DNA from: a virus
Lineage: Duplodnaviria > Heunggongvirae > Uroviricota > Caudoviricetes
Virus record (IMG/VR): IMGVR_UViG_2778261515_000020
Location: 1-10,757 of that record
Length of the DNA stretch: 10,757 nucleotides
Direction: 5' to 3' (one strand)
Notes under the pieces: model-generated
Database searches by the model: none
What the model was told of the DNA's origin: nothing
Seen by the model: the letters and a program-made list of their open reading frames with translations, nothing else
Shown: piece by piece, positions 1-10,757 of the stretch
How positions within the stretch are numbered: the first letter of the stretch is position 1
How the letters are laid out: each line of letters opens with the position of its first letter
Translations under genes and position numbers: made by a program

Positions 1-588
1 TTCAGGCCAGATGACATCCGGCGCGGTGCTGGTATCTGTTGCCGTCACCGCGTCAGTGTAATCCAGCACGGCGTTAAGTCGGGTTGTTTCTGCCTGCGTC
101 AGTTTCCGTCCGGCCTGCAATTTCAGTTGAATCAGACTGATGGAAGCCATAGCAGCATCAATCAGTGACTGGCGCTGTGCTTCTGCCGCTTCGACTACGG
201 CGCTATGCTGTGCCTCAGTATCGGTCACCCATTTCTCACCATCCCATTTATCGTATGGAGATAAAGGGGCGATAGTGGTTGTATTTTCAGGGTAATCACC
301 CGGAGCTGTGATTTCTTTTGATTCTCCTGTTTCTGTGCTATAGACGATTTCACCGCGATGGTCTGGCACATATTCCCATGAATTTAAATTCACAGAACGA
401 CAGATTGCATAACCAACCTTATGTATGCCAGGTGCATCAAGACAGGAACATGCTGGAATACCGACCCCCACAGCAAGATATTCAGTTGATGTGGAAATAT
501 ATTCCCGTGTTTCACTATCATAGTTATAGACGGTAATATTCCCCGCCTTCGTGGCAATAAACTCGCTATTTAATACAGCATTATCCAT
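1..588 (-). CDS. Phage tail fiber assembly protein (Tfa/gpG-like), partial; C-terminus lies beyond the window start
   Basis: Hand translation of the minus strand from the ATG at 588-586 gives MDNAVLNSEFIATKAGNITVYNYDSETREYISTSTEYLAVGVGIPACSCLDAPG...APDVIWPE with no stop through position 1 (196 codons). The N-terminal motif and the DVIWPE-type C-terminal region are typical of enterobacterial Tfa proteins. The start overlaps the stop of the upstream cassette (TAATG). This ORF is absent from the supplied track because it is truncated. Confidence 0.8.
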   Translation of the reverse strand, partial: MDNAVLNSEFIATKAGNITVYNYDSETREYISTSTEYLAVGVGIPACSCLDAPGIHKVGYAICRSVNLNSWEYVPDHRGEIVYSTETGESKEITAPGDYPENTTTIAPLSPYDKWDGEKWVTDTEAQHSAVVEAAEAQRQSLIDAAMASISLIQLKLQAGRKLTQAETTRLNAVLDYTDAVTATDTSTAPDVIWPE

Positions 589-1034
589 TATGCAGCCCTC
601 ACGATATAGTTAAATGCAACATTTCGTGGGCGGGTTTCGTTACCGCCAGGGAGCTGAAAAGCGTTGATAATCCCACCGCTTGCCTGACTTATTCCATCCG
701 TGTACAACCCGCCACCGGCACTGTCGCTGAGTGCAAATGTTTTTGATGGTGAACTGTTTGAAGCTGGTCCCCAGTATTTTAATGCGAGCTTTCTGACTTC
801 ATCACTCTGAATACTCAATAAAGCACGCCCTGTATCAATGCTGCGCCCATCATCCCAGCCACGAATAAACTCACCGCGGAGATCAGGTAGTTTCCCTGAT
901 GGATATGCTGTAGCAAGACGGGGATATTTAACCTTATCAAAGGCAGCGCCATTGCATTTCAGCCAGCCTGTTGGCGGCGTAGCTGAAGGCCACGGAACAG
1001 GGACACCAACAGGTAATGCAGAGCCTTCTCCCAA
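588..1034 (-). CDS. Tail fiber C-terminal variable cassette B (tail-collar-like domain); promoterless 3' gene segment
   Basis: The ORF translation contains LPVGVPVPWPSATPPTGWLKCNGAAF...LPDLRGEFIRGWDDGR, which matches the phage tail collar domain pattern as I recall it. The first codon in the track is TTG, not ATG, and there is no RBS, so this is a cassette rather than a free-standing gene. It ends ...NYIVRAA with its stop overlapping the tfa start. Confidence 0.6.
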   Translation of the reverse strand: MGEGSALPVGVPVPWPSATPPTGWLKCNGAAFDKVKYPRLATAYPSGKLPDLRGEFIRGWDDGRSIDTGRALLSIQSDEVRKLALKYWGPASNSSPSKTFALSDSAGGGLYTDGISQASGGIINAFQLPGGNETRPRNVAFNYIVRAA

Positions 1035-1047
1035 ACCAACGTTTTTA
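807..1047. repeat. Direct repeat copy 1 (about 241 bp, roughly 85% identical by eye to 1294..1534); 5' conserved part of cassette B
   Basis: Visual alignment of the plus strand: ctgaatactcaataaa...ccaaaccaacgttttta is shared by both copies, with identity breaking sharply after gttttta. Confidence 0.75.
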
Positions 1048-1051
1048 TGCA
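1026..1051 (-). other. Candidate invertase crossover site (hix/gix/pix-like) at the 5' end of cassette B
   Basis: The minus strand reads TGCATAAAAACG-TT-GGTTTGGGAGAA, resembling the AAAACC-NN-GGTTT core of Hin/Gin-family sites as I remember them. It sits exactly at the homology breakpoint between cassettes A and B. Confidence 0.4.
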
Positions 1052-1563
1052 GCTCTCACAATAAAGTTGAATGCAATATTGCGCGGTCGTGTTTCGCTCC
1101 CGCCTGTGTTACCAATACTCCCTCGTGTATGTAGCGTTGGTGATGGAATCAGGGTTCCGCCTGCACTGGTACCATCCAGTCCCTTGCCCTGTGTATATGC
1201 TCTTCTGAAGATTGCCGCCAGTTCCCATACCTCTTTTGAGTCATACCCATCGTTGGCGACAACAGGATGACGGTGCTTTTCCAGCATTCCGGCCTGAATA
1301 CTCAATAAAACACGTCCAGCATCAATACCGCGCCCATCATCCCAGCCACGAATAAATTCACCGCGTAAATCAGGCAGTTTTCCTGACGGGTACGCTGTGG
1401 CTAGTTTGGGATACTTCAGCTTATCAAAGGCAGCACCATTGCATTTTAGCCAGCCCTCTGGAGGTGTGGCTGAAGGCCACGGAACTGTTACACCAACAGG
1501 CAACGCAGAACCTTCCCCCAAACCAACGTTTTTAACTTCGAAAACAGAGCTATCTAATAGCAT
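1045..1563 (-). CDS. Tail fiber C-terminal variable cassette A (tail-collar-like domain); promoterless 3' gene segment next to the invertase
   Basis: The translation has the same tail-collar-like motif (LPVGVTVPWPSATPPEGWLKCNGAAF...LPDLRGEFIRGWDDGRG), then a divergent middle, then the same C-terminal tail as cassette B (ETRPRNIAFNFIVRAA). There is no RBS upstream of the ATG at 1563. Its position next to the invertase matches the silent S'v-type segment of Mu G / P1 C / e14 P systems. Confidence 0.6.
   Translation of the reverse strand: MLLDSSVFEVKNVGLGEGSALPVGVTVPWPSATPPEGWLKCNGAAFDKLKYPKLATAYPSGKLPDLRGEFIRGWDDGRGIDAGRVLLSIQAGMLEKHRHPVVANDGYDSKEVWELAAIFRRAYTQGKGLDGTSAGGTLIPSPTLHTRGSIGNTGGSETRPRNIAFNFIVRAA
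1294..1534. repeat. Direct repeat copy 2 (about 241 bp); 5' conserved part of cassette A
   Basis: Visual alignment with 807..1047. A second shorter shared block, about 75% identical by eye, lies at the cassette 3' ends (591..648 versus 1048..1105). Confidence 0.75.
1513..1538 (-). other. Candidate invertase crossover site (hix/gix/pix-like) at the 5' end of cassette A
   Basis: The minus strand reads AAGTTAAAAACG-TT-GGTTTGGGGGAA. The right half and centre are shared with the cassette B site and the left half differs, as with hixL versus hixR. It lies about 55 bp upstream of the invertase start. Confidence 0.4.
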
Positions 1564-1591
1564 TTTTACTAACAGAAACAGGATGCTTTTT

Positions 1592-2191
1592 ATGCAAATT
1601 GGCTATATTCGCGTATCAACAAATGACCAGAACACGGATTTGCAACGCAATGCGCTCAATAGCGCAGGATGTGAACTGATTTTTGAAGATAAAATCAGCG
1701 GAACAAAATCAGCCAGACCGGGATTGAAAAAACTGCTCAGAACGTTATCAGCGGGGGATACGCTCGTTGTCTGGAAACTGGACAGGCTGGGCAGAAGCAT
1801 GAAACACCTGATCACACTGATTGAGGAATTGCGGAAAAAAGGTGTCAATTTTCGTAGTCTGACGGATTCAATTGATACCAGTACCCCAATGGGACGATTT
1901 TTCTTCCACGTGATGGGCGCCCTGGCTGAAATGGAACGTGAATTAATTGTAGAGCGTACACTGGCCGGACTGGCAGCAGCCCGCGCACAGGGGCGAATTG
2001 GTGGGCGTCGCCCGAAACTGACAAAAGAGCAACATGAGCAAATAGCGAGGCTGATTAAAAACGGCCACGACAGAAAACAGCTGGCCATAATTTACGACAT
2101 CGGTATATCGACGATTTATCGTTATCACCCTGTAGGTGACACGCAACCCGGAGGAATAATTGAGAATACTCAGGAAACAAAAAACCGCTAA
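1592..2191 (+). CDS. Serine-recombinase DNA invertase, Hin/Gin/Cin/Pin family
   Basis: MQIGYIRVSTNDQNTDLQRNAL...DTLVVWKLDRLGRSMKHL...SLTDSIDTSTPMGRFFFHVMGALAEMERELIVERTLAGLAAARAQGRIGGRRPKLT closely resembles the Hin and Pin sequences as I recall them, including the catalytic Ser in IRVST and a C-terminal HTH. The start was chosen at the ATG at 1592 (AGGA 8 nt upstream). The track ORF from 1397 is an upstream artefact. Confidence 0.9.
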   Translation: MQIGYIRVSTNDQNTDLQRNALNSAGCELIFEDKISGTKSARPGLKKLLRTLSAGDTLVVWKLDRLGRSMKHLITLIEELRKKGVNFRSLTDSIDTSTPMGRFFFHVMGALAEMERELIVERTLAGLAAARAQGRIGGRRPKLTKEQHEQIARLIKNGHDRKQLAIIYDIGISTIYRYHPVGDTQPGGIIENTQETKNR

Positions 2192-2211
2192 TCTGAACAT
2201 TAGCGGTTTTT
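2181..2211. terminator. Bidirectional intrinsic terminator between the convergent invertase and U genes
   Basis: Perfect 12-bp stem AAAACCGCTAAT / ATTAGCGGTTTT around a 6-nt loop (CTGAAC), with A-tract on one side and T-tract on the other. The stem overlaps the invertase stop codon (2189-2191) and lies 9 nt from the U stop. Confidence 0.6.
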
Positions 2212-2219
2212 ACGTTAAA

Positions 2220-2708
2220 TCAGAACACCCCTTTAACTGAGCTGACCACATTGTTAAGGGATGATGTCACCTTATCTTTAAGACCGGACAGCATATCACT
2301 GAACGATGAGGATTGCAGGCGCTCCCGCAAATCCTCATCACAGCGTTCAAGGGTCAGGGAAAACTCTATCTTTTTCGCTTTCCCGTAGCGATCCAGTTCA
2401 GAGCGGGTCGTGCTCGTTTCAGTCAGAACATACATGCCGTAAATCTGCCCGACGCCATCAATCAGAGGCCACGGGCGTCCCGCATACGCCTGCGTGGCCA
2501 GCAGCGACAGCGACACTTCGCCGCCTGTAATCTCAGGATAAAGCACGCCGGAAAGAACGATGCGATCATCACCTGCACCGATATACTGCCAGCTTGCTGA
2601 ACGGTTAACGCGCTCGTTTTTCACATGTCGCCAGCTTTTGTTTTGCTGTAACTGCTGATGCGGTAATGTGCGCAACTCAAAAACAAACATGCCGTAGATC
2701 ATCATCAT
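2220..2708 (-). CDS. U: P2 gpU-like tail protein
   Basis: 162 aa beginning MMMIYGMFVFELRTLPHQQLQ...WPLIDGVGQIYGMYV, resembling P2 gpU as I recall it. AAGGAG lies 7 nt upstream of the ATG and overlaps the T stop. It sits immediately downstream of T, as in P2. Confidence 0.85.
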   Translation of the reverse strand: MMMIYGMFVFELRTLPHQQLQQNKSWRHVKNERVNRSASWQYIGAGDDRIVLSGVLYPEITGGEVSLSLLATQAYAGRPWPLIDGVGQIYGMYVLTETSTTRSELDRYGKAKKIEFSLTLERCDEDLRERLQSSSFSDMLSGLKDKVTSSLNNVVSSVKGVF

Positions 2709-2719
2709 GGCACGACTCC

Positions 2720-5557
2720 TTACTCTTTATCATAAAAGCTACCACGCCCGGCACGGGTACGCCGCTCCAGTTCTGCCCTGACCATTTCGCCGACCAGTTT
2801 CGCCAGTTCGCGGGGATTCTGCGTAACAACGTTATGCAGATGGACATGAATTTCACCACCAAATTCGGGTGCCGCAGTCTCCCGGCTGCGGGAAGATGCG
2901 GAAACGGGCGCAACTGGCGCACGTGCGGCCTCCACGACCGGACGGGAGCTTGCTGCAACAACAGGGGGCAACACCGGAGATAACGGAGCCGGGACCACGG
3001 GTGTGATGTTGATTGCGGAAGCAGGCTTACTGACCTGCGCAATCTTCCGCTCCTGCCACTCCCCGCGAACAGCAAGCGCACGGGGCAGGTTCTTAAAGAC
3101 AATATCACCGGGGCCGATACGCTTTTTCGTCTCATCAACCAGCTTGCCTGTGTTATCTGCAATTTTGCTGAGCCTGCGCAGCGTGCCAGTGTTGTTGTCC
3201 GTGAGCGGCTTGTTGTCTTTAGGCTTATCGCCTCCGGTCCCTGTTTCCGCAGATTTCGGCGGATTGATTTTTGCCAGGTCCCCCTGAAGCAAAGCAACCT
3301 TGTCCTGAAGAATGGCCGCACGCTGCGCGTCTTCGATTTTCTTTCTCGCCCTTTCCGCTTCATCTGGAAGGACGCCAAGTTTTTCCAGTATCCATGCCAG
3401 CGTATCCAGCAGCATTTTTGCAGGCGTCAGGACAAGCTGTAACGCACCGCCAAGAACGTTGCCGAACACCTCGCCAGCACTGGTGCATTTATCCAGCGTT
3501 TCCTTACTGGATTCCATCGGTGACAGCAGCGATGTAAACCAGTTAAAGACCTGAATCACGCCATCACGAACTAGTTCGAAAACAGGGCCAAACCGTTCAA
3601 AGGTTTCGCGTAACGGGGCCAGCCGCTCCATAATCCCGCTGAACACCCCGGCAAAAAATGCCCTGATTGGGTCCCAGTATTTCCAGATGAGAGCGGCAGC
3701 TCCGGCAAGCGCAGCCACGATAAGACCGACCGGGCTGAACAACGCCCCGATAGCGCCTCCAAGTAAAGAGACGGAACCCGCCACCATTCCCCACAGCGCT
3801 GGCAGGACCCTGACAGCATTCATTGATCCGGTCAGGAGGGAAAAACCAAGACGCAGTTTTGCCAGCGGGCCAGCAAGCACCCCAAGAGCCAGTGACAACG
3901 AGCCAACCGTTGCAGTCATTGCCAGCAGCGCACCGCCTGCAATCAGTAGCTGGCGCGTCAGTGCCGGATGGGCCTGCGCCAGCTCCGTCACCTTTGAGAC
4001 CACCCGAGTGAGCCACTGCGTGACAGAGCGCAGCGGACCGTCAATCAGATCCGCAATGCGGATACGCAGCCCCTCCCATGCACTGCCGAGTGATCTCAGG
4101 TCGCCATCAAGGTTATTGGCCATAACCTTTGCCGTGCGTTCAGCCTCACCGCGTGCGCCTTCAAGTTCTTTTCTCAGCTTGGGCAGAGAACCGTCACCTG
4201 CCGCATCAACGAGGGCCATAAATGACGTGAAGGCCTCTTCTCCGGCTATGTCCTTAAAGAACGATACCCGGTCAACTTCCCCGTATTTGCGGGTGGCTTT
4301 ATAAAGGTCGGCCAGCACATCCTCCATCGGGCGCATTTTGCCGTTCGCATCAGAGACAGCCACACCAAGCTCTTTCAGCGCCTCTGCTGCCGCCTTTGGC
4401 GGTGATGCCAGACGAGCAAGGCTGGCACGCATTGCCGTCCCGGCATCACTCCCTCTGATACCCATATTCGCCAGCACGCCCGCCATCGCTGCGGCCTGCT
4501 CCAGCGATATTCCCAGCTTACCCGCCACCGGACCTGCATATTTCATGGTTTCGCCCAGCGCGCGAAGGTCGGTGTTAGTACGGGTAAACGCCGCAGTAAG
4601 TGTGTCGCCGACCCGGTCCATCTGGTCAGCAGAGAGACCGAACTGCGTCAGGATATTTGAGCCAATATCCGCCGTCTCGCCAAGGTCCATACCGCCAGCC
4701 GTTGCCATGCTCAGCACGCCGGGAAGCGCAGCCTGAATGGCTTCTGGTGTGAAGCCAGCCATAGCAAGAAATGCCTGCCCACTGGCGGCATCACTCGCAG
4801 TAAACTGCGTTTCAGAGCCGAGCTTTAGCGCCTGCTCACGCAGCGCCTTAAACTGCGGGCTGTTCTGGTCAATTCGCGTCAGCGCCTGCACACGGGACAT
4901 CTCTTTCCCGAATCCGATAGCGGGCTGCAAAAAACGCCCGGCAGCATAGCCGCCAGCCGCTGCCGCACCAGTTGCCAGCGCACCACCCGTTTTCAGTTTT
5001 CCCGCTGTTTCCTGCGCGCGTGAATACTGCTCACGCGCCCGCGTTACACGCGCAAGCGCCTGTCGTTCGCGTTCAAGCTGGTTGTTGTACTGTTCGGTGC
5101 GTCTGATGGCCTGCTGGATGGTGTTATCGCTGCCTGTCAGGGAAATACCGTGGCGTTTAAGCTCTCCGCCAAGCTCCCGCATTTTCTGAATTTCCCGCGT
5201 GCGCGATTCATTCAGGCGTTCAAGCCGGGTGCTTAACTGCTGCATCAGCCTTTGTTGTTTTTCGCTGAGCACAGTACCCGTGCGTTGTAACTGATGAAGG
5301 GCGTTAAGCTGGCGTCGTGCTTTCACGATGCCAGCATCCGCTTTACTGACAGCATCGCGGGCGCGCTCAAATGAACGCGCCTGACGCTCGAGATTTTTGA
5401 TTGCCCCCTGCGTTTGCTGGATGGAGTCACCAAGCCGCCCCATCAGGCGGCGGGCGTTTTCGGCTGGCCGGGTCAGCCTGTCAACAGCACTGAAGGCGAC
5501 CCGAATGTCAAGAGTCTTCATTGTCTGCATTCCCACTGCGAAGTGCCGCCCGCTCAC
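2720..5557 (-). CDS. T: Tail tape measure protein (P2 gpT-like)
   Basis: ORF of about 945 aa with coiled-coil-like Q/R/E/A-rich N-terminal half, a central hydrophobic glycine/alanine-rich segment, and a position between E/E' and U. The start is uncertain: the longest ORF begins with GTG at 5557, and in-frame ATGs at 5530 and 5521 are alternatives. Confidence 0.8.
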   Translation of the reverse strand: MSGRHFAVGMQTMKTLDIRVAFSAVDRLTRPAENARRLMGRLGDSIQQTQGAIKNLERQARSFERARDAVSKADAGIVKARRQLNALHQLQRTGTVLSEKQQRLMQQLSTRLERLNESRTREIQKMRELGGELKRHGISLTGSDNTIQQAIRRTEQYNNQLERERQALARVTRAREQYSRAQETAGKLKTGGALATGAAAAGGYAAGRFLQPAIGFGKEMSRVQALTRIDQNSPQFKALREQALKLGSETQFTASDAASGQAFLAMAGFTPEAIQAALPGVLSMATAGGMDLGETADIGSNILTQFGLSADQMDRVGDTLTAAFTRTNTDLRALGETMKYAGPVAGKLGISLEQAAAMAGVLANMGIRGSDAGTAMRASLARLASPPKAAAEALKELGVAVSDANGKMRPMEDVLADLYKATRKYGEVDRVSFFKDIAGEEAFTSFMALVDAAGDGSLPKLRKELEGARGEAERTAKVMANNLDGDLRSLGSAWEGLRIRIADLIDGPLRSVTQWLTRVVSKVTELAQAHPALTRQLLIAGGALLAMTATVGSLSLALGVLAGPLAKLRLGFSLLTGSMNAVRVLPALWGMVAGSVSLLGGAIGALFSPVGLIVAALAGAAALIWKYWDPIRAFFAGVFSGIMERLAPLRETFERFGPVFELVRDGVIQVFNWFTSLLSPMESSKETLDKCTSAGEVFGNVLGGALQLVLTPAKMLLDTLAWILEKLGVLPDEAERARKKIEDAQRAAILQDKVALLQGDLAKINPPKSAETGTGGDKPKDNKPLTDNNTGTLRRLSKIADNTGKLVDETKKRIGPGDIVFKNLPRALAVRGEWQERKIAQVSKPASAINITPVVPAPLSPVLPPVVAASSRPVVEAARAPVAPVSASSRSRETAAPEFGGEIHVHLHNVVTQNPRELAKLVGEMVRAELERRTRAGRGSFYDKE

Positions 5558-6040
5558 GCCAGCTAACCACTTCGCCGGGCGTCATCATGAAGATTTCGGC
5601 GGGCGACCAGTTAAAAATAACGGCAATATCTGCCACAAAGTCTTCTATGTGCTCAAAGCACACAACCGTGATCAGGCTTCCGTCGCCTGTTCGTTCTTCC
5701 CGCCAGAGTCCGCACCGCTCAAAAAATTTACGGCAACCACACATAACTGAATAAAGTCACGGGATGCCATTTTTTTGATCGTCACTTCATCCAGTCGCGG
5801 TGATGTCACGCGTGACAACAGCGTAAACATGGATTCCGCTTTCAGACTCAGCACATCAGACAGCGACAGACCACGCAGGGATCCAGCCTGCTCAATAGCC
5901 CCGGTGATCTCCACATACGTGATTTTTTCGTCGCCTCGCTCAATTGGCTGGGTAAGTTTTACGCCGCGCTCGCTGGTTTCTTTCGCAGTATCAGCAACCA
6001 CCACAGCGTTTTCAGTATCGGTATTTTTCGTCTCTTTCAT
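5508..6040 (-). CDS. Tail assembly chaperone E+E' fusion made by programmed -1 ribosomal frameshift
   Basis: Slippery heptamer T TTT TTG in the zero frame of E (minus strand, 5720..5726, codons Asn-Phe-Leu 105-107). The -1 frame continues ...FFERCGLWREERTGDGSLITVVCFEHIEDF...NADNEDS to a stop at 5508, matching the track ORF 5508..5744 and overlapping the T start. This is the same arrangement as P2 E/E' and lambda G/GT. Confidence 0.7.
5672..6040 (-). CDS. E: Tail assembly chaperone gpE-like (zero-frame product)
   Basis: 122-aa ORF between FII and T. GAAAGGAG lies 8 nt upstream of the ATG at 6040. It contains the frameshift heptamer near its 3' end. Confidence 0.8.
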   Translation of the reverse strand: MKETKNTDTENAVVVADTAKETSERGVKLTQPIERGDEKITYVEITGAIEQAGSLRGLSLSDVLSLKAESMFTLLSRVTSPRLDEVTIKKMASRDFIQLCVVAVNFLSGADSGGKNEQATEA

Positions 6041-6094
6041 CAGAAAACTCCTTTCAGTCAGAGGCGACGCACTGCGCCGCCTGCATATTACTTA

Positions 6095-6607
6095 TCAGCC
6101 GAGCCCGAGCGCGGAGCGGATGCGGTCGGGTACAATGTCCTTGCCATCCTTCCGGTAGATGTGGTTCACCAGGTCAATTTCCCACACCGGACGATCGTTA
6201 ATACTCAGCTTGTAGTAGGTGTTTTTGACAGCGTAAGTGTGTGACGTGGCTTCGCCCTGTTTGGCCTCCCCCATATCAATTTCCGTCACACGCCCGCGCA
6301 TCTCGATTTCATACAGGTCGCTTTCTGCATCGGTGTAGTATTCACCCGCAAAACGCAGCAGCGTGCCGTCCATTGTTCCGCCATATTTAAGGAACAGCGC
6401 ACGAACGGCGCCACCCATGACAAAACTCGCATCAAGCGCGGAATCGTCCAGGCCGAGGTCGATACTCACCGCTCCCAGCATGCCACCACCACGATAGCTG
6501 TCGGTTTTACGCGTCAGTTTAGGCGGGGTGACAGACGTCACCTTACCCACTTCATTTTCACCATCCACAAACAGCGTAAAAAAACGAAGATGTTTTGGTA
6601 CGGCCAT
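6095..6607 (-). CDS. FII: Tail tube protein (P2 FII-like)
   Basis: 170 aa at the right size and position for P2 FII. Its start overlaps the FI stop (TAATG). Confidence 0.88.
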   Translation of the reverse strand: MAVPKHLRFFTLFVDGENEVGKVTSVTPPKLTRKTDSYRGGGMLGAVSIDLGLDDSALDASFVMGGAVRALFLKYGGTMDGTLLRFAGEYYTDAESDLYEIEMRGRVTEIDMGEAKQGEATSHTYAVKNTYYKLSINDRPVWEIDLVNHIYRKDGKDIVPDRIRSALGLG

Positions 6608-7791
6608 TAAGCACCTCCAAGCACTGCAAATGCAGGACCAAAGAACTCATCAGTGAACGCCTGGTAAAGCTCCATATCTTCCAGCGGAGGAACGGGCGTA
6701 TATTTATAGCGAATACGCACGCGCCCCTGTCGTAATTCTGTGGTGCTGTTATCCACGATGTCATACCAGCACGATGCGCCAATCAGTTTCCCGGCAGTAA
6801 CCAGCGAATCCAGTTTTGCCCTGATGGCACTGATAACATCCTTCACGTTCGCGGGCGTCAGTGGACTGTCGATGGTTTCAAACTGCGCTTCCGCAATTGA
6901 ATCAGCCAGCACCTGTGCGGTTCGGGTATACACCTCAAAGATGTAGGCATTCGTTTCCGGTGTGCGGTTGCCCCAGAAGCGGAACCCGTTGCGGCGAATG
7001 ATGGTTGTGATTTCTTTGTTGTTGAGGCTGTTGGCATCGCTGTCAGCAGCCTGCAACGACCAGAACACATGCCTGGACATCCCCAGCACATTTTTGACCG
7101 GAACGTTGGACAGCGATTTGTGCCAGCCCTGCTCATGGTCAATGTACGCACGAAGGCCGCACGCATAGGCTGGCGCGGGGAAAACCTCATTCTCGCCACT
7201 TTTCGGGTTGTAAGCGATGAAGTCCGGCCACAGGAGCATCAGCTCGCGTTCGTTGAATTTTTCACGGTATGCAATGGCTTCAGCCATCGTGTTACAGCCA
7301 TGACAGGAGGCATACACAAACGCGCGCAGTTTACCTGCAATCACGCACAGGGATTTTGTCACCGCCTCCGTGTCCAGCCCCGGCGCGGCCAGAATACGCG
7401 GACGGTATCCGATGCTTTCATCCTGCTCTGCAACAAGCAGCGCATACATCCCCGTATAGCTGCCGTCGGATTCAGAACCACCAATAACCAGTTGATCCTG
7501 TGTTTTTCCGTCTTCTTCTTTGTGTTCAGCCACGCGAACGACGATCACCTTTGTGCTCACCTGGTCTGCAATGGGTTTCAGCGCACGGTACAGCGTCCCC
7601 GTTGTCCCGCATTTTCCCAGCACGTCATTGACGCGGGTCACTAATGCAGGCTTGTTCAGCGGGAACAGCTTCGCGTCCGCATCGTCCGCCGTTGCCACGA
7701 TACCGATAACGCTGGAATCAACGTCGTTAATTGCTGTTACCAGGTCGGTACTTTCCGTAACGCGGGCGCCATGAAAACGAGTTTCACTCAT
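6607..7791 (-). CDS. FI: Contractile tail sheath protein (P2 FI-like)
   Basis: 394 aa with motifs I recall from P2 FI (LSNV.V...FW.LQ..., TLIRR.GFRFWGNRT, YTRTAQV.AD, YTPVPPLE). AAGGGG RBS upstream of the ATG at 7791. Confidence 0.9.
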   Translation of the reverse strand: MSETRFHGARVTESTDLVTAINDVDSSVIGIVATADDADAKLFPLNKPALVTRVNDVLGKCGTTGTLYRALKPIADQVSTKVIVVRVAEHKEEDGKTQDQLVIGGSESDGSYTGMYALLVAEQDESIGYRPRILAAPGLDTEAVTKSLCVIAGKLRAFVYASCHGCNTMAEAIAYREKFNERELMLLWPDFIAYNPKSGENEVFPAPAYACGLRAYIDHEQGWHKSLSNVPVKNVLGMSRHVFWSLQAADSDANSLNNKEITTIIRRNGFRFWGNRTPETNAYIFEVYTRTAQVLADSIAEAQFETIDSPLTPANVKDVISAIRAKLDSLVTAGKLIGASCWYDIVDNSTTELRQGRVRIRYKYTPVPPLEDMELYQAFTDEFFGPAFAVLGGA

Positions 7792-7948
7792 AGCTTCAGC
7801 CCCTTGTATCCGTTAAATGATTCGGCAACAATCATCACCCACCACGCGCGTAATCTCACCCCTGCGACGTTCTCCCGCCACGGCGACAACAAAAAGCAGT
7901 AACCCCCTCCGCACGCACATGCGACCATGCCGCACAGGGAGGGAACAG

Positions 7949-9049
7949 ATGACCGACACCACCATGCAATTGCTCAGTCAGGGCACAGACCCCGTGAAAA
8001 TGCCGGATTTTGATATTCTCGCGGAGGGTAAAACGCTGTCAGGCGTGGCAGAGCGCCTGATGAGCCTGTCACTGACCGACAACCGGGGATTTGAGGCGGA
8101 CCAGCTCACCATCACGCTGGATGATGCAGATGGTCAGTTGCAGCTACCGCCACGGGGCGCGCGCCTGACGGTTCTCATTGGCTGGAAAGGAGAACCGCTG
8201 ACAGAAAAAGGCACTTACATTGTTGATGAAATCGCTCACGAAGGACCGCCGGACAGGCTGACTGTTTCAGCCAGAAGCGCAGATTTTCGGGATGAATTTA
8301 ACGTTAAACGTGAGGTGTCCTGGCATGATGTGACCGTTGAGCGTGTGGTATCCGCCATCGCTCATCGGTACGGTCTGAAACCGCAAATCAGCGAAATGCT
8401 GATGGATATCGAAATCGACCACGCCGACCAGACCGAAGAAAGCGACATGTCCTTTCTTACGCGCATGGCGGAAATGCTGGGCGCAATCACCACGGTAAAA
8501 AGCGGTAATCTGTTATTCATTATGCCAGGCGGTGGCGTGAACGCACAGGGCCAGCCGTTGCCATCGTTCGCCATCACGCGCAGCAGTGGCGATCGCCATC
8601 AGTTCCGCATTGCTGACCGCGAAGCGTATACGGGGGTACGCGCTTACTGGCTTGATCTTAATTACGGGAAAAAGAAAAAAGTCAGCGTGAAACGCCGTAA
8701 ACCGAAAATGGAGAAAAGCAGTAGCCGTGAAGGCGACTATATGGAAGGTGCGGAAGGCAACGTGTTTGTGTTACGCAAGACTTATCAGAACGAACAGGCA
8801 GCAAGACGCGCTGCGGCGGCAAAGTGGCAGCAGCTACAACGCGGAGCCGCATCATTCTCCATCACACTGGCACGTGGACGCGCAGAACTCTACCCCGAAA
8901 TGCATGGCACGGTAACAGGATTTAAAAGCGAGATTGATAATCAGGACTGGATTATTGCAAAAGCCGAGCACACCATTGATAACAGCGGCTTTACCACGCA
9001 GCTTGAGCTTGAGGCAAAAATCCCGGAATGGATAGCGGAAACAGAGTGA
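7949..9049 (+). CDS. D: Late control / tail protein gpD-like
   Basis: Long ORF with a lysine-rich patch (GKKKKVSVKRRKPK) and overall gpD-like character. The start was chosen at the ATG at 7949 (GGGAGGG 5 nt upstream), not the alternative-start extension to 7817 in the track. Confidence 0.85.
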   Translation: MTDTTMQLLSQGTDPVKMPDFDILAEGKTLSGVAERLMSLSLTDNRGFEADQLTITLDDADGQLQLPPRGARLTVLIGWKGEPLTEKGTYIVDEIAHEGPPDRLTVSARSADFRDEFNVKREVSWHDVTVERVVSAIAHRYGLKPQISEMLMDIEIDHADQTEESDMSFLTRMAEMLGAITTVKSGNLLFIMPGGGVNAQGQPLPSFAITRSSGDRHQFRIADREAYTGVRAYWLDLNYGKKKKVSVKRRKPKMEKSSSREGDYMEGAEGNVFVLRKTYQNEQAARRAAAAKWQQLQRGAASFSITLARGRAELYPEMHGTVTGFKSEIDNQDWIIAKAEHTIDNSGFTTQLELEAKIPEWIAETE

Positions 9050-9091
9050 GCAACTTAGAATAGCGGCAGCACCACGTTAAGGGAGGTCGCT

Positions 9092-9352
9092 ATGTTCCGT
9101 TGTCCGCTTTGTGGCGCATCTGCCCGTATCCGCACCAGTCGTCCAGAAAATGATTCAAACACCGTGCGGCAAAAGTATTACCAGTGTAACAATCTGGAAT
9201 GCGGCGTATGCTTCTCAACACTGGAAGCTTTCCATAAATTCACATCAAAACACGCCTCCGGCGTTCACTCTTCAGAAGGTATCCCGTGGCATGATCTGCC
9301 AGCTTCACACAGGGGAAACAATCAGATGAGTTTGCCTTTACCTCAGAATTAA
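9092..9352 (+). CDS. ogr: Ogr/Delta-family zinc-finger late transcription activator
   Basis: MFRCPLCGASARIRTSR...YYQCNNLECGVCF is a Cys4 arrangement (C-x2-C ... C-x4-C) with clear N-terminal similarity to P2 Ogr as I recall it (MFHCPLC...ARTSR...YHQCQNVNC). Strong GGGAGG RBS. Located directly after D, as in P2. Confidence 0.85.
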   Translation: MFRCPLCGASARIRTSRPENDSNTVRQKYYQCNNLECGVCFSTLEAFHKFTSKHASGVHSSEGIPWHDLPASHRGNNQMSLPLPQN

Positions 9353-9750
9353 CAGACAGAATTGCCGGAGTAACAAAAAAAGCGATACACCCATTTACCC
9401 GGCAGTACCACTCCCCCGCCCCATAGCTGGCAGTGAGGCGGGATGTTTTGCCTACCCGCCAGCAGGCACCATCGTGGAAATATCCAACATTGAAGGACGC
9501 CCGGATAAGCCTGTTATCAGGCAAATCTTACCCATCGGTCATAACCTGCCTGATGTAAAGCCCGGCGAACAATTGCAACAACAGCGTGCAGAAGTGTTTC
9601 AGCATGTCACGACTGACGGAAGCTGGCGCAGAAAAACCGACCAGCAAATCCAAGAAGAAAAGCGCGTAAAACGATCACTGCTGATGTGGCGTTGCTTTAT
9701 ACAAGCTGCTATTTGCGATATGCTGAACACATCAACCTGTGGAGTGCATT

Positions 9751-10377
9751 ATGAAACAAAAATCAAAGTCTGCTGCCATTGCTGCTATTGCTACAGCTCT
9801 GACAGCATCACTGGCTCCGGTGCCAGCTAAAAGCACGATACTACCAACAACAGTTATTGAATCCGTGACACACGCCAGAGTGGTTTCAATGCTTACATTT
9901 GAGCATCATGATGGTCAGGTGTTTCTGCCTCTTGAAGAAGCTATTGAATATATCAACGGGCTGAATGACAACATGCGTGCCGCGCTCAATGCAGTCATTG
10001 AAGAACGACAGAACAGAGGCAAGGGAGCTCTGTTTGCTGACAAAACCGCAAAAATCATAAAAATATGCGAAGAGTCACTTAAGCAGCACAGCCGTGTTAA
10101 AGAGGCTGTCAAAATTGTAATGGATCCGGATAACCTGGCAAAAATGTATCCGGATAGCATGGAGCAAAGAATCGCCTATCGCAATAAACTGGTTCGTTTT
10201 GGTCGGGCAATTGCGCAGGGAGAGTTTATCGCTCGTGATGCCATCAACGCCATCAAACGAAGCACCGCACCAGACAAAACGACCAGCCTAGGCAATACGC
10301 TGTCTGACGGAAATGTGAAAGCAATGATTATTGCCGAGCATAAAAACATGGGACTCCCGGCACCGGAGTTTTCCTGA
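9751..10377 (+). CDS. Hypothetical protein (208 aa) with a hydrophobic N-terminal segment; first gene of a two-gene cargo operon and candidate partner of the downstream YafO-like protein
   Basis: Start chosen at the ATG at 9751 (GGAG 6 nt upstream); the track begins at an upstream GTG. The N-terminus MKQKSKSAAIAAIATALTASLAPVPA looks like a signal peptide or membrane anchor. I recognise no family. Its stop overlaps the next start (TGATG). Codon usage looks AT-richer than the tail genes. Confidence 0.6.
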   Translation: MKQKSKSAAIAAIATALTASLAPVPAKSTILPTTVIESVTHARVVSMLTFEHHDGQVFLPLEEAIEYINGLNDNMRAALNAVIEERQNRGKGALFADKTAKIIKICEESLKQHSRVKEAVKIVMDPDNLAKMYPDSMEQRIAYRNKLVRFGRAIAQGEFIARDAINAIKRSTAPDKTTSLGNTLSDGNVKAMIIAEHKNMGLPAPEFS

Positions 10378-10757
10378 TGGCAAGCAAAGTAAGCATTCAT
10401 AAAGATGTTGAATACCAGGACATTGCAAAAGTTTACGGAAAGGCTCTGGAAAACTGGTTAAATACCGGTGTTCTCCCTGACAGATTCGGCAATGAAGGGC
10501 AGTGGGAAGATAACGCAAGATTATGTGGTTCGTTTGTATATAAATTACACATAAGACTACCGTCAGAACCACCATGGAAGAAAAGCAAAGCCCAAATAGA
10601 CAGAACTTCAAATATCTATCTGGTTTATACAAGGCACTGGATGGATTATGACAATATACAAATCATCAGCATCATGGCCCCAGATGCTCACGAAAAAGCC
10701 AAAACTTCTTTCATGGCTGAGCTGGAAAGACGGGCAGAAGAATTCCAGAACTCATAA
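10377..10757 (+). CDS. YafO-family toxin-like protein (putative ribosome-dependent mRNA interferase)
   Basis: 126 aa. It shares with E. coli YafO, as I recall its sequence, the motifs GVLPDRFG (YafO GVLPDIFG), HIRL (HIHL), DRTSNIYLVYTRH (RTNDEAHLVYCQG), IISIMAPDAHEKA (LIAILKPEPHKLA) and MAELER (MAEAFR). The assignment is from memory, not from a database search. Confidence 0.5.
   Translation: MASKVSIHKDVEYQDIAKVYGKALENWLNTGVLPDRFGNEGQWEDNARLCGSFVYKLHIRLPSEPPWKKSKAQIDRTSNIYLVYTRHWMDYDNIQIISIMAPDAHEKAKTSFMAELERRAEEFQNS

Follow-up and report, generated by a model that had tools for sequence, protein, structure and literature searches.

Two stacked collar-type fibre tips ahead of a single tfaE-type gene in a probable three-tip inversion switch of an Escherichia coli prophage

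Overview of the element

The stretch of DNA analysed here, called ‘the window’ throughout, comprises positions 1–10,757 (10,757 nucleotides, nt) of IMG/VR virus record IMGVR_UViG_2778261515_000020 (Caudoviricetes). Taken together, the evidence indicates that it most probably represents one isomer of a DNA inversion switch with three tips and three sites, of the same kind as Gin/Cin/Pin/Min and carried by a P88-like E. coli prophage. The prophage belongs with Xuanwuvirus, a P2-related group, and the switch sits in the tail-fibre gene, H. Two silent collar-type fibre tips, cassettes A and B, are carried one behind the other, and a single gene for a TfaE-type tail fibre assembly protein (Tfa), tfaB, follows the second of them. 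The features of the switch that lie within the window are as follows.

1..588, minus strand: tfaB (ATG at 588–586), encoding a TfaE-type tail fibre assembly protein; Pfam Caudo_TAP (PF02413), E 2.8e-31
588..1034, minus strand: cassette B, a silent collar-type fibre tip of 148 codons counted from the crossover site; Pfam Collar, E 8.6e-15
591..638, minus strand: tail of B, ETRPRNVAFNYIVRAA, closing segment of the collar domain
1026..1051: crossover site s2, TTCTCCCAAACC AA CGTTTTTATGCA, half-sites b-X; its outer half holds the stop codon of cassette A
1045..1563, minus strand: cassette A, a silent collar-type fibre tip without a tfa of its own; Pfam Collar, E 1e-14
1048..1095, minus strand: tail of A, ETRPRNIAFNFIVRAA, equivalent of the B tail
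1513..1538: crossover site TTCCCCCAAACC AA CGTTTTTAACTT, half-sites a-I, between cassette A and the invertase
1592..2191, plus strand: Pin/Hin/Gin-type serine DNA invertase, 199 amino acids (aa); Pfam Resolvase, E 2.3e-51, and HTH_7, E 1.5e-12

The two Pfam matches of the invertase, Resolvase in the N-terminal part and HTH_7 in the C-terminal part, together cover 1592–2188, adjoining the invertible segment.

Isomers of the switch

Four complete E. coli genomes (ETEC1749, rl0044, ETEC4085 and OkiPb01713) share the element at 99.6–99.9% identity. In ETEC1749 and rl0044, the constant part of H runs in frame into A, giving a 509-aa open reading frame (ORF) followed by silent B and tfaB; the opposite strand carries tfaC, a gp53-like tip (C) and the invertase. 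In ETEC4085 it is B into which the constant part runs in frame (499-aa ORF), with tfaB behind it, and OkiPb01713 likewise reads H-B; in both of these genomes A lies on the opposite strand, directly ahead of C-tfaC, and adjoins the invertase. The third tip, C, with its own tfaC, is placed by these relatives just beyond the left end of the window.

The exchanges can be followed through the half-sites, which were named a, b and c on the cassette side and H, I (invertase side) and X (end of A) on the outer side. The pairs are b-X and a-I in the window; a-H, b-X and c-I in ETEC1749 and rl0044; and b-H, c-X and a-I in ETEC4085 and OkiPb01713. At the AA core, which is common to both sites of the window and to the H site of the relatives, these pairings are reciprocal throughout, and they show that each of the three sites has been used, giving overlapping invertible segments. 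Moreover, the window differs by inversion from ETEC1749 with a BLAST breakpoint overlap at 1512–1529, and from ETEC4085 with an overlap at 1025–1042. The breakpoints and the reciprocal half-sites at the AA core establish the site at the A/B junction as a working crossover site. A scan of the 5′ part of the invertase gene with a crude Fis-enhancer consensus gave candidate sites, with no pair at the canonical spacing of ~48 bp.

By elimination, the isomer in the window itself should be H-C followed by tfaC. A fourth isomer (a-H, c-X, b-I) is predicted to read H-A, silent C and tfaC, with tfaB on the other strand; it is absent among the five copies (the window and the four genomes), five being too few for a conclusion. 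The mechanism proposed is that the invertase would exchange DNA at 26-bp sites where the constant part of H meets its alternative 3′ ends. A and B form a head-to-tail stack in which the stop codon of A lies in the outer half of the site that opens B, and B alone precedes a tfa.

The copies also differ by means other than inversion. In OkiPb01713 (locus L008, 2128–4229) A, C and the invertase match the other copies at 99.9%, and the expressed B and its tfaB are a different allele, with a Tfa N-terminal half 81% identical and a collar flank resembling that of A, which points to homologous recombination inside the segment as the means by which modules were exchanged. Comparison of ETEC4085 with ETEC1749 finds the same segment and tail block (99.9%) joined to two baseplate/H-constant modules of <97% identity, a pattern that, from the alignments, shows mosaic exchange at the fibre gene.

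The shared tail closes a split collar domain

Both cassettes terminate in ETRPRN[V/I]AFN[Y/F]IVRAA. That A and B end in nearly the same 16 residues had been proposed from a reading of the DNA sequence without database searches (the sequence-only reading), and is borne out: 14/16 residues are identical, with 82% DNA identity over 60 nt (588–647 versus 1045–1104), or 46/58 positions (79%) over the coordinates first compared (591–648 versus 1048–1105). Past the 60-nt repeat, identity between A and B falls to 20–33%, which is chance level. The same reading was also right about what follows each tail, as both the ORFs and the site coordinates attest. The stop codon of B overlaps the start of tfaB (GCA TAATG G), and the TAA of A (1047–1045) falls inside the 26-bp site s2, with downstream letters AAACGTTGGTTTGGGAGAAGG, so that the A/B joint reads GCTGCA TAA AAACGTTGG.

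The 16 tail codons differ between A and B at nine nucleotides, seven of them synonymous, indicating long-standing purifying selection and not fresh duplication. Nor is the likeness confined to the tail: A and B are 85% identical over 241 nt encoding their first ~80 residues (807–1047 versus 1294–1534), with 59% protein identity overall, so that the tail marks one end of a wider homology broken by a variable middle.

A sequence search of the PDB aligned residues 19–104 of cassette A to the stretch of 2XGF that equals T4 gp37 811–890, and the last 24 residues to the extreme C-terminus of T4 gp37 (...NTVKNIAFNYIVRLA). The tail motif also aligned to the C-terminal regions of T4 gp12 (ETRPWNISLNYIIK) and of the 9CUY short tail fibre (ENRPKNIAVMYIIK). 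In gp37 the collar-fold domain D10 is made up of residues 811–881 and 1010–1026, with the receptor-binding domain D11 inserted between them (PMC6957217). By homology (Pfam PF07484), the cassettes are taken to be built in the same way, from a collar N-terminal part, a variable insert and a collar closing segment; the variable, receptor-binding part would be inserted between an N-terminal collar of ~80 residues and the 16-residue tail.

A tail that closes a split collar domain is expected to be conserved in every member of the family, and conservation was measured on the best 150 of >14,000 cluster representatives (50%-identity clusters). The tail motif stood at the end of 120/150, and in these 120 mean column conservation reached 0.91 in the tail, as against 0.73 in the N-terminal collar and 0.19 in the middle. 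On these alignments the tail is the most conserved segment of the family and is not special to the A/B pair. The sequence-only reading had treated the tail as a link between the two cassettes and had named ordinary family-wide conservation as the finding that would speak against this; such conservation is what the 120 representatives, T4 gp37 and gp12 display.

A-type tips carry an HxH motif (EKHRHP, window 1270–1290), D-type tips found elsewhere have SHYHN, and B-type tips are without it. The HxH of cassette A aligns with the first HxH of the iron-binding T4 gp37 needle.

Stacked tips recur on unrelated replicons

The stack is not a local accident. The same succession of A, site, B and tfa is found beside an invertase, at ~87% identity, on the unrelated 48.7-kb phage-plasmid pGMI14-004_3, and two other collar tips are stacked alike on phage-plasmids of ~90 kb. 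A like joint is carried by Escherichia sp. MOD1-EC7003 and by a metagenome contig; scans for the joint in metagenomes and in species-representative genomes gave two loci each, which serve as independent examples and are of no use for isomer counts. A scan of IMG/VR for the joint sequence returned 19 contigs with 1–5 joints each. Exactly one match to the TfaE-type N-terminal domain was present at 14/19 of these loci, together with 1–8 collar-cassette matches (at least two in 12/14), and the other 5/19, mostly ended by contig ends, had no TfaE-type match. More than one TfaE-type gene was found at no stacked-cassette locus examined, the 19 IMG/VR contigs included.

The closest known counterpart is the Min multiple DNA inversion system of plasmid p15B, reportedly described by Sandmeier, Iida and Arber in 1990–92. 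The comparison was made through the Min-like region of pMCR_SCKP-LL83 (locus L015, 1700–6800). Crossover sites and stacked collar cassettes number nine each in this region, where one cassette is A-type and a single tfaE is annotated; at 7/9 sites the preceding stop codon lies within the outer half-site (CGTTTTTATGCC). According to its authors, the inversion region of pMCR_SCKP-LL83 is 99% identical over 92% of p15B min (PMC5786510).

The window element resembles Min in its Pin/Cin-type serine invertase, in having more than two crossover sites and head-to-tail collar-type 3′ cassettes, in placing each stop inside the outer half-site of the next site (CGTTTTTATGC...), in the single tfaE behind the last cassette of the stack and in an A-type cassette among the repertoire. 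It differs in scale, with three sites and three tips as against nine sites and nine cassettes in the p15B-like plasmid, and in setting: p15B is a P1-like plasmid, whereas the window element belongs to a P2-like integrated prophage and adds a non-collar, gp53-like tip with its own tfa. As far as sequence organisation goes, the arrangement in the window is the minimal two-cassette form of the p15B-Min stacking design.

One chaperone for both tips

Comparison of tips with their neighbouring tfa genes suggests that one TfaE-type chaperone probably serves both A and B. Among the matches listed, an A-type cassette ends directly on tfa in 36/36 other E. coli records. The Tfa encoded next to an A-type tip (locus L001) is 92% identical to that of the window, and the one next to a B-type tip (locus L002) 99%. 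Between tips of types A, B, B′ and D, identity is ~20% in the variable middles, 79–90% in the N-terminal halves of the adjacent Tfa proteins and 94–100% in the tip tails; since the Tfa N-terminal halves are this similar when the middles stand at ~20%, the chaperone appears to track the conserved frame and not the insert. The sequence-only reading had one Tfa serving both tips through their shared tail. The shared Tfa is favoured by the 92% and 99% identities. A second tfa that might belong to A was also at issue: one exists, tfaC, just off the left end, and it goes with the unrelated gp53-like tip C.

What has been published on the family bears on this. In the Tfa family, according to the summary of North et al. 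2019 given in PMC9608196, a non-conserved N-terminal domain binds the distal fibre and a conserved C-terminal domain drives trimerisation; and a statement in PMC9659904, citing Montag 1989, has lambda Tfa able to substitute for T4 gp38 in the folding of gp37. A PDB sequence search with TfaB gave no useful match.

In the A-on isomer, as in ETEC1749, tfaB lies 457 nt downstream on the same strand. A terminator-like site was looked for on the minus strand between A and tfaB and not found, and GAGG stands ~8 nt ahead of the tfaB ATG, which makes independent initiation plausible. With A expressed, one transcript would serve for both, tfaB being translated from a ribosome-binding site of its own.

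Several observations weigh against this account of the switch and its chaperone. The left flank of the window is beyond the contig end, and H-C expression in its isomer is deduced. The isomers come from different strains and show past use of the sites, with present activity not implied. TfaC and TfaB share only their C-terminal 80 residues, at 36% identity, which counts against a simple shared-chaperone picture, and their N-terminal domains are unrelated. Furthermore, in the predicted fourth isomer tfaC would be the only tfa oriented like the expressed A, and in the p15B-like isomer that was examined the one tfaE and the expressed fibre gene lie on opposite strands; for these two reasons, simple co-transcription cannot be the full explanation.

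Both of the latter isomers, leaving an expressed tip without a co-oriented TfaE, would fit a reading in which A is independent of TfaB, either folding without any Tfa or using whichever Tfa lies downstream, TfaB or TfaC, through the conserved C-terminal domain. No tfa is coupled to A, the 36%-identical C-terminal domain is common to TfaB and TfaC, and T4 gp12, which has the same collar and tail, uses only gp57A (PMC3004832). Such independence is unlikely, however, given that the A-type cassettes of all 36 E. coli records cited above are translationally coupled to a TfaE-type gene, and that the N-terminal domains in which TfaB and TfaC are unrelated are the tip-binding part in this family.

Under the preferred reading, that of a shared chaperone, TfaE would recognise the conserved collar region and not the variable insert, and one tfa could serve both stacked tips. 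A stronger form of it is offered tentatively, as a possibility and not an expectation: the TfaE-type chaperone may read only the invariant collar closure (N-terminal collar plus 16-residue tail), such that any number of unrelated inserts could be stacked behind one gene. Were this so, some isomers would express a tip without a co-oriented cognate chaperone, and these would be either built-in non-infective states or a sign that tfaE is expressed independently of segment orientation.

Origin of the A/B junction

The sequence-only reading further suggested that A had been inserted or duplicated at the junction of fibre and tfa, and that the junction should be searched for recombination footprints. 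Up to window position 1044, B and tfaB are 99.7% identical to a two-arm Mu-like prophage with pinE and tfaE. From 1045 on, the sequence (A, invertase and tail genes) matches a different P88-like prophage at 89.5% identity, one with an A-type cassette that couples directly to tfa. The outer half-site of s2 has CGTTTTTA in common with the invertase-side half-site of the element itself and then enters TTATGCAGC of A; the overlap at the joint is at most 3 nt, TTA. These footprints suggest a B-tfa module abutting an A-invertase-tail block, and a recent insertion of A is not indicated. As far as the alignments reach, they are compatible with an old illegitimate joint, passed on by descent and later reshuffled as homologous exchange took place through the conserved collar and tail.

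The suggestion can nevertheless be put in a form that accounts for part of the evidence, namely that A arrived recently at the fibre/tfa junction and that the tail is a docking motif specific to the pair and its Tfa. A 60-nt direct repeat terminates both cassettes, the stack, compared with single-cassette relatives, resembles a 457-nt insertion placed exactly between stop codon and tfa ATG, and the microhomology at the joint is only the 3-nt TTA. It is very unlikely all the same. The seven synonymous changes among nine in the tail codons, and identities of only 82–85% in the conserved parts, do not describe a recent duplication, and the same joint recurs on an unrelated replicon, in a copy diverged by 13%, as well as in p15B-type stacks and on the 19 viral contigs. 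A pair-specific docking role, for its part, is at odds with a tail that is the most conserved segment of so large a family and that is borne as well by T4 gp12, a tip without a Caudo_TAP chaperone. As a recent local event, then, insertion or duplication of A finds no support in the 16 codons compared or in the ~13%-diverged stack elsewhere.

That cassette A, or the site between A and B, is an unused, dead relic of rearrangement is hardly credible, for although RefSeq labels the silent B of ETEC1749 a pseudogene lacking its N-terminus (a mere outcome of annotation for a promoterless cassette) and exact A is present in only 4/5426 complete E. coli genomes, every copy has intact A and B ORFs, natural isomers join each of the two in frame to H, and the exchange of partners at s2 falls precisely on its core, so that the breakpoints and half-sites already contradict this view.

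Relation to known systems

Like the G segment of Mu with Gin, the C segment of P1 with Cin and the P segment of e14 with Pin, the window element has a constant 5′ fibre part with alternative 3′ ends, 26-bp sites and a serine invertase, and in those systems each arm carries a tfa downstream (U/U′, tfaE). They have two sites and two tip-tfa pairs, to which the window element adds a third site and a tfa-less tip on one arm. With T4 gp37/gp38 and lambda Stf/Tfa it shares the split collar, consisting of an N-terminal part and the last ~17 residues with the receptor-binding part inserted, as well as a chaperone gene immediately downstream, the product of which can, or in the window element probably does, act across different tips; unlike the window element, T4 and lambda work without DNA inversion, and the T4 insertion, the needle, is far longer. 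In the R64 shufflon (Rci, pilV), several alternative 3′ ends of one gene are chosen by multiple inversions, as here; it differs in its tyrosine recombinase, in having a pilus adhesin as target and in lacking a chaperone, and is a system that works alike and not a relative (cited in PMC9881135).

Stacked tips as a design have been known from p15B since about 1990, and the discovery is accordingly modest. What is added is a compact natural switch of three tips, carried by a P2-like prophage; sequenced strains document three of the four isomers possible for it. A general rule also becomes apparent: collar-type tips consist of a conserved collar, a variable insert and a conserved tail, and whole stacks of them go with only one TfaE gene. 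Should the chaperone indeed recognise nothing but the conserved frame, engineered phages and tailocins could be given exchanged or stacked tips with no need to match the chaperone anew.

Remaining features of the window

Two further features of the window are as follows.

1: left end of the window, which is the end of contig NLPZ01000048.1 (assembly GCA_002230995.1); the break falls within tfaB
2180..2211: probable terminator hairpin, with a 13-bp stem and T runs on both sides, lying where the invertase and gpU genes converge

The first 196/200 codons of tfaB are inside the window, the remainder lying beyond the contig end. A break inside tfaB is a break inside the invertible segment, as is expected from short-read assembly of a mixed-isomer culture. 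In the isomer of the window the cassette A ORF is 172 aa long, its start codon falling within the invertase-side flank. The hairpin at 2180–2211 is, from its stem and flanking T runs, probably a bidirectional terminator.

Elsewhere in the window, tail genes of P2 type lie on the minus strand (U, T, E, FII and FI) and on the plus strand (D and ogr), in a block 93% identical to, and collinear with, phage P88 and other Xuanwuvirus members. FI-FII-E-T-U (2220–9352) is divergent from D/ogr, unlike the single operon of P2, and this is the normal layout for Xuanwuvirus; that the divergence of FI-U from D-ogr might be a rearrangement artefact was considered and rejected on the collinearity with P88.

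Homology to P88 ends after ogr (region 9388–10757). Here an ORF of 212 aa without a Pfam match (9739–10377) is joined by an ATGA overlap to an ORF of the YafO-toxin family, which runs from 10377 to the end of the window (PF13957, E 1e-27). Going by this overlap and the family match, the two may form a toxin-antitoxin-like accessory (moron) pair at the end of the prophage.

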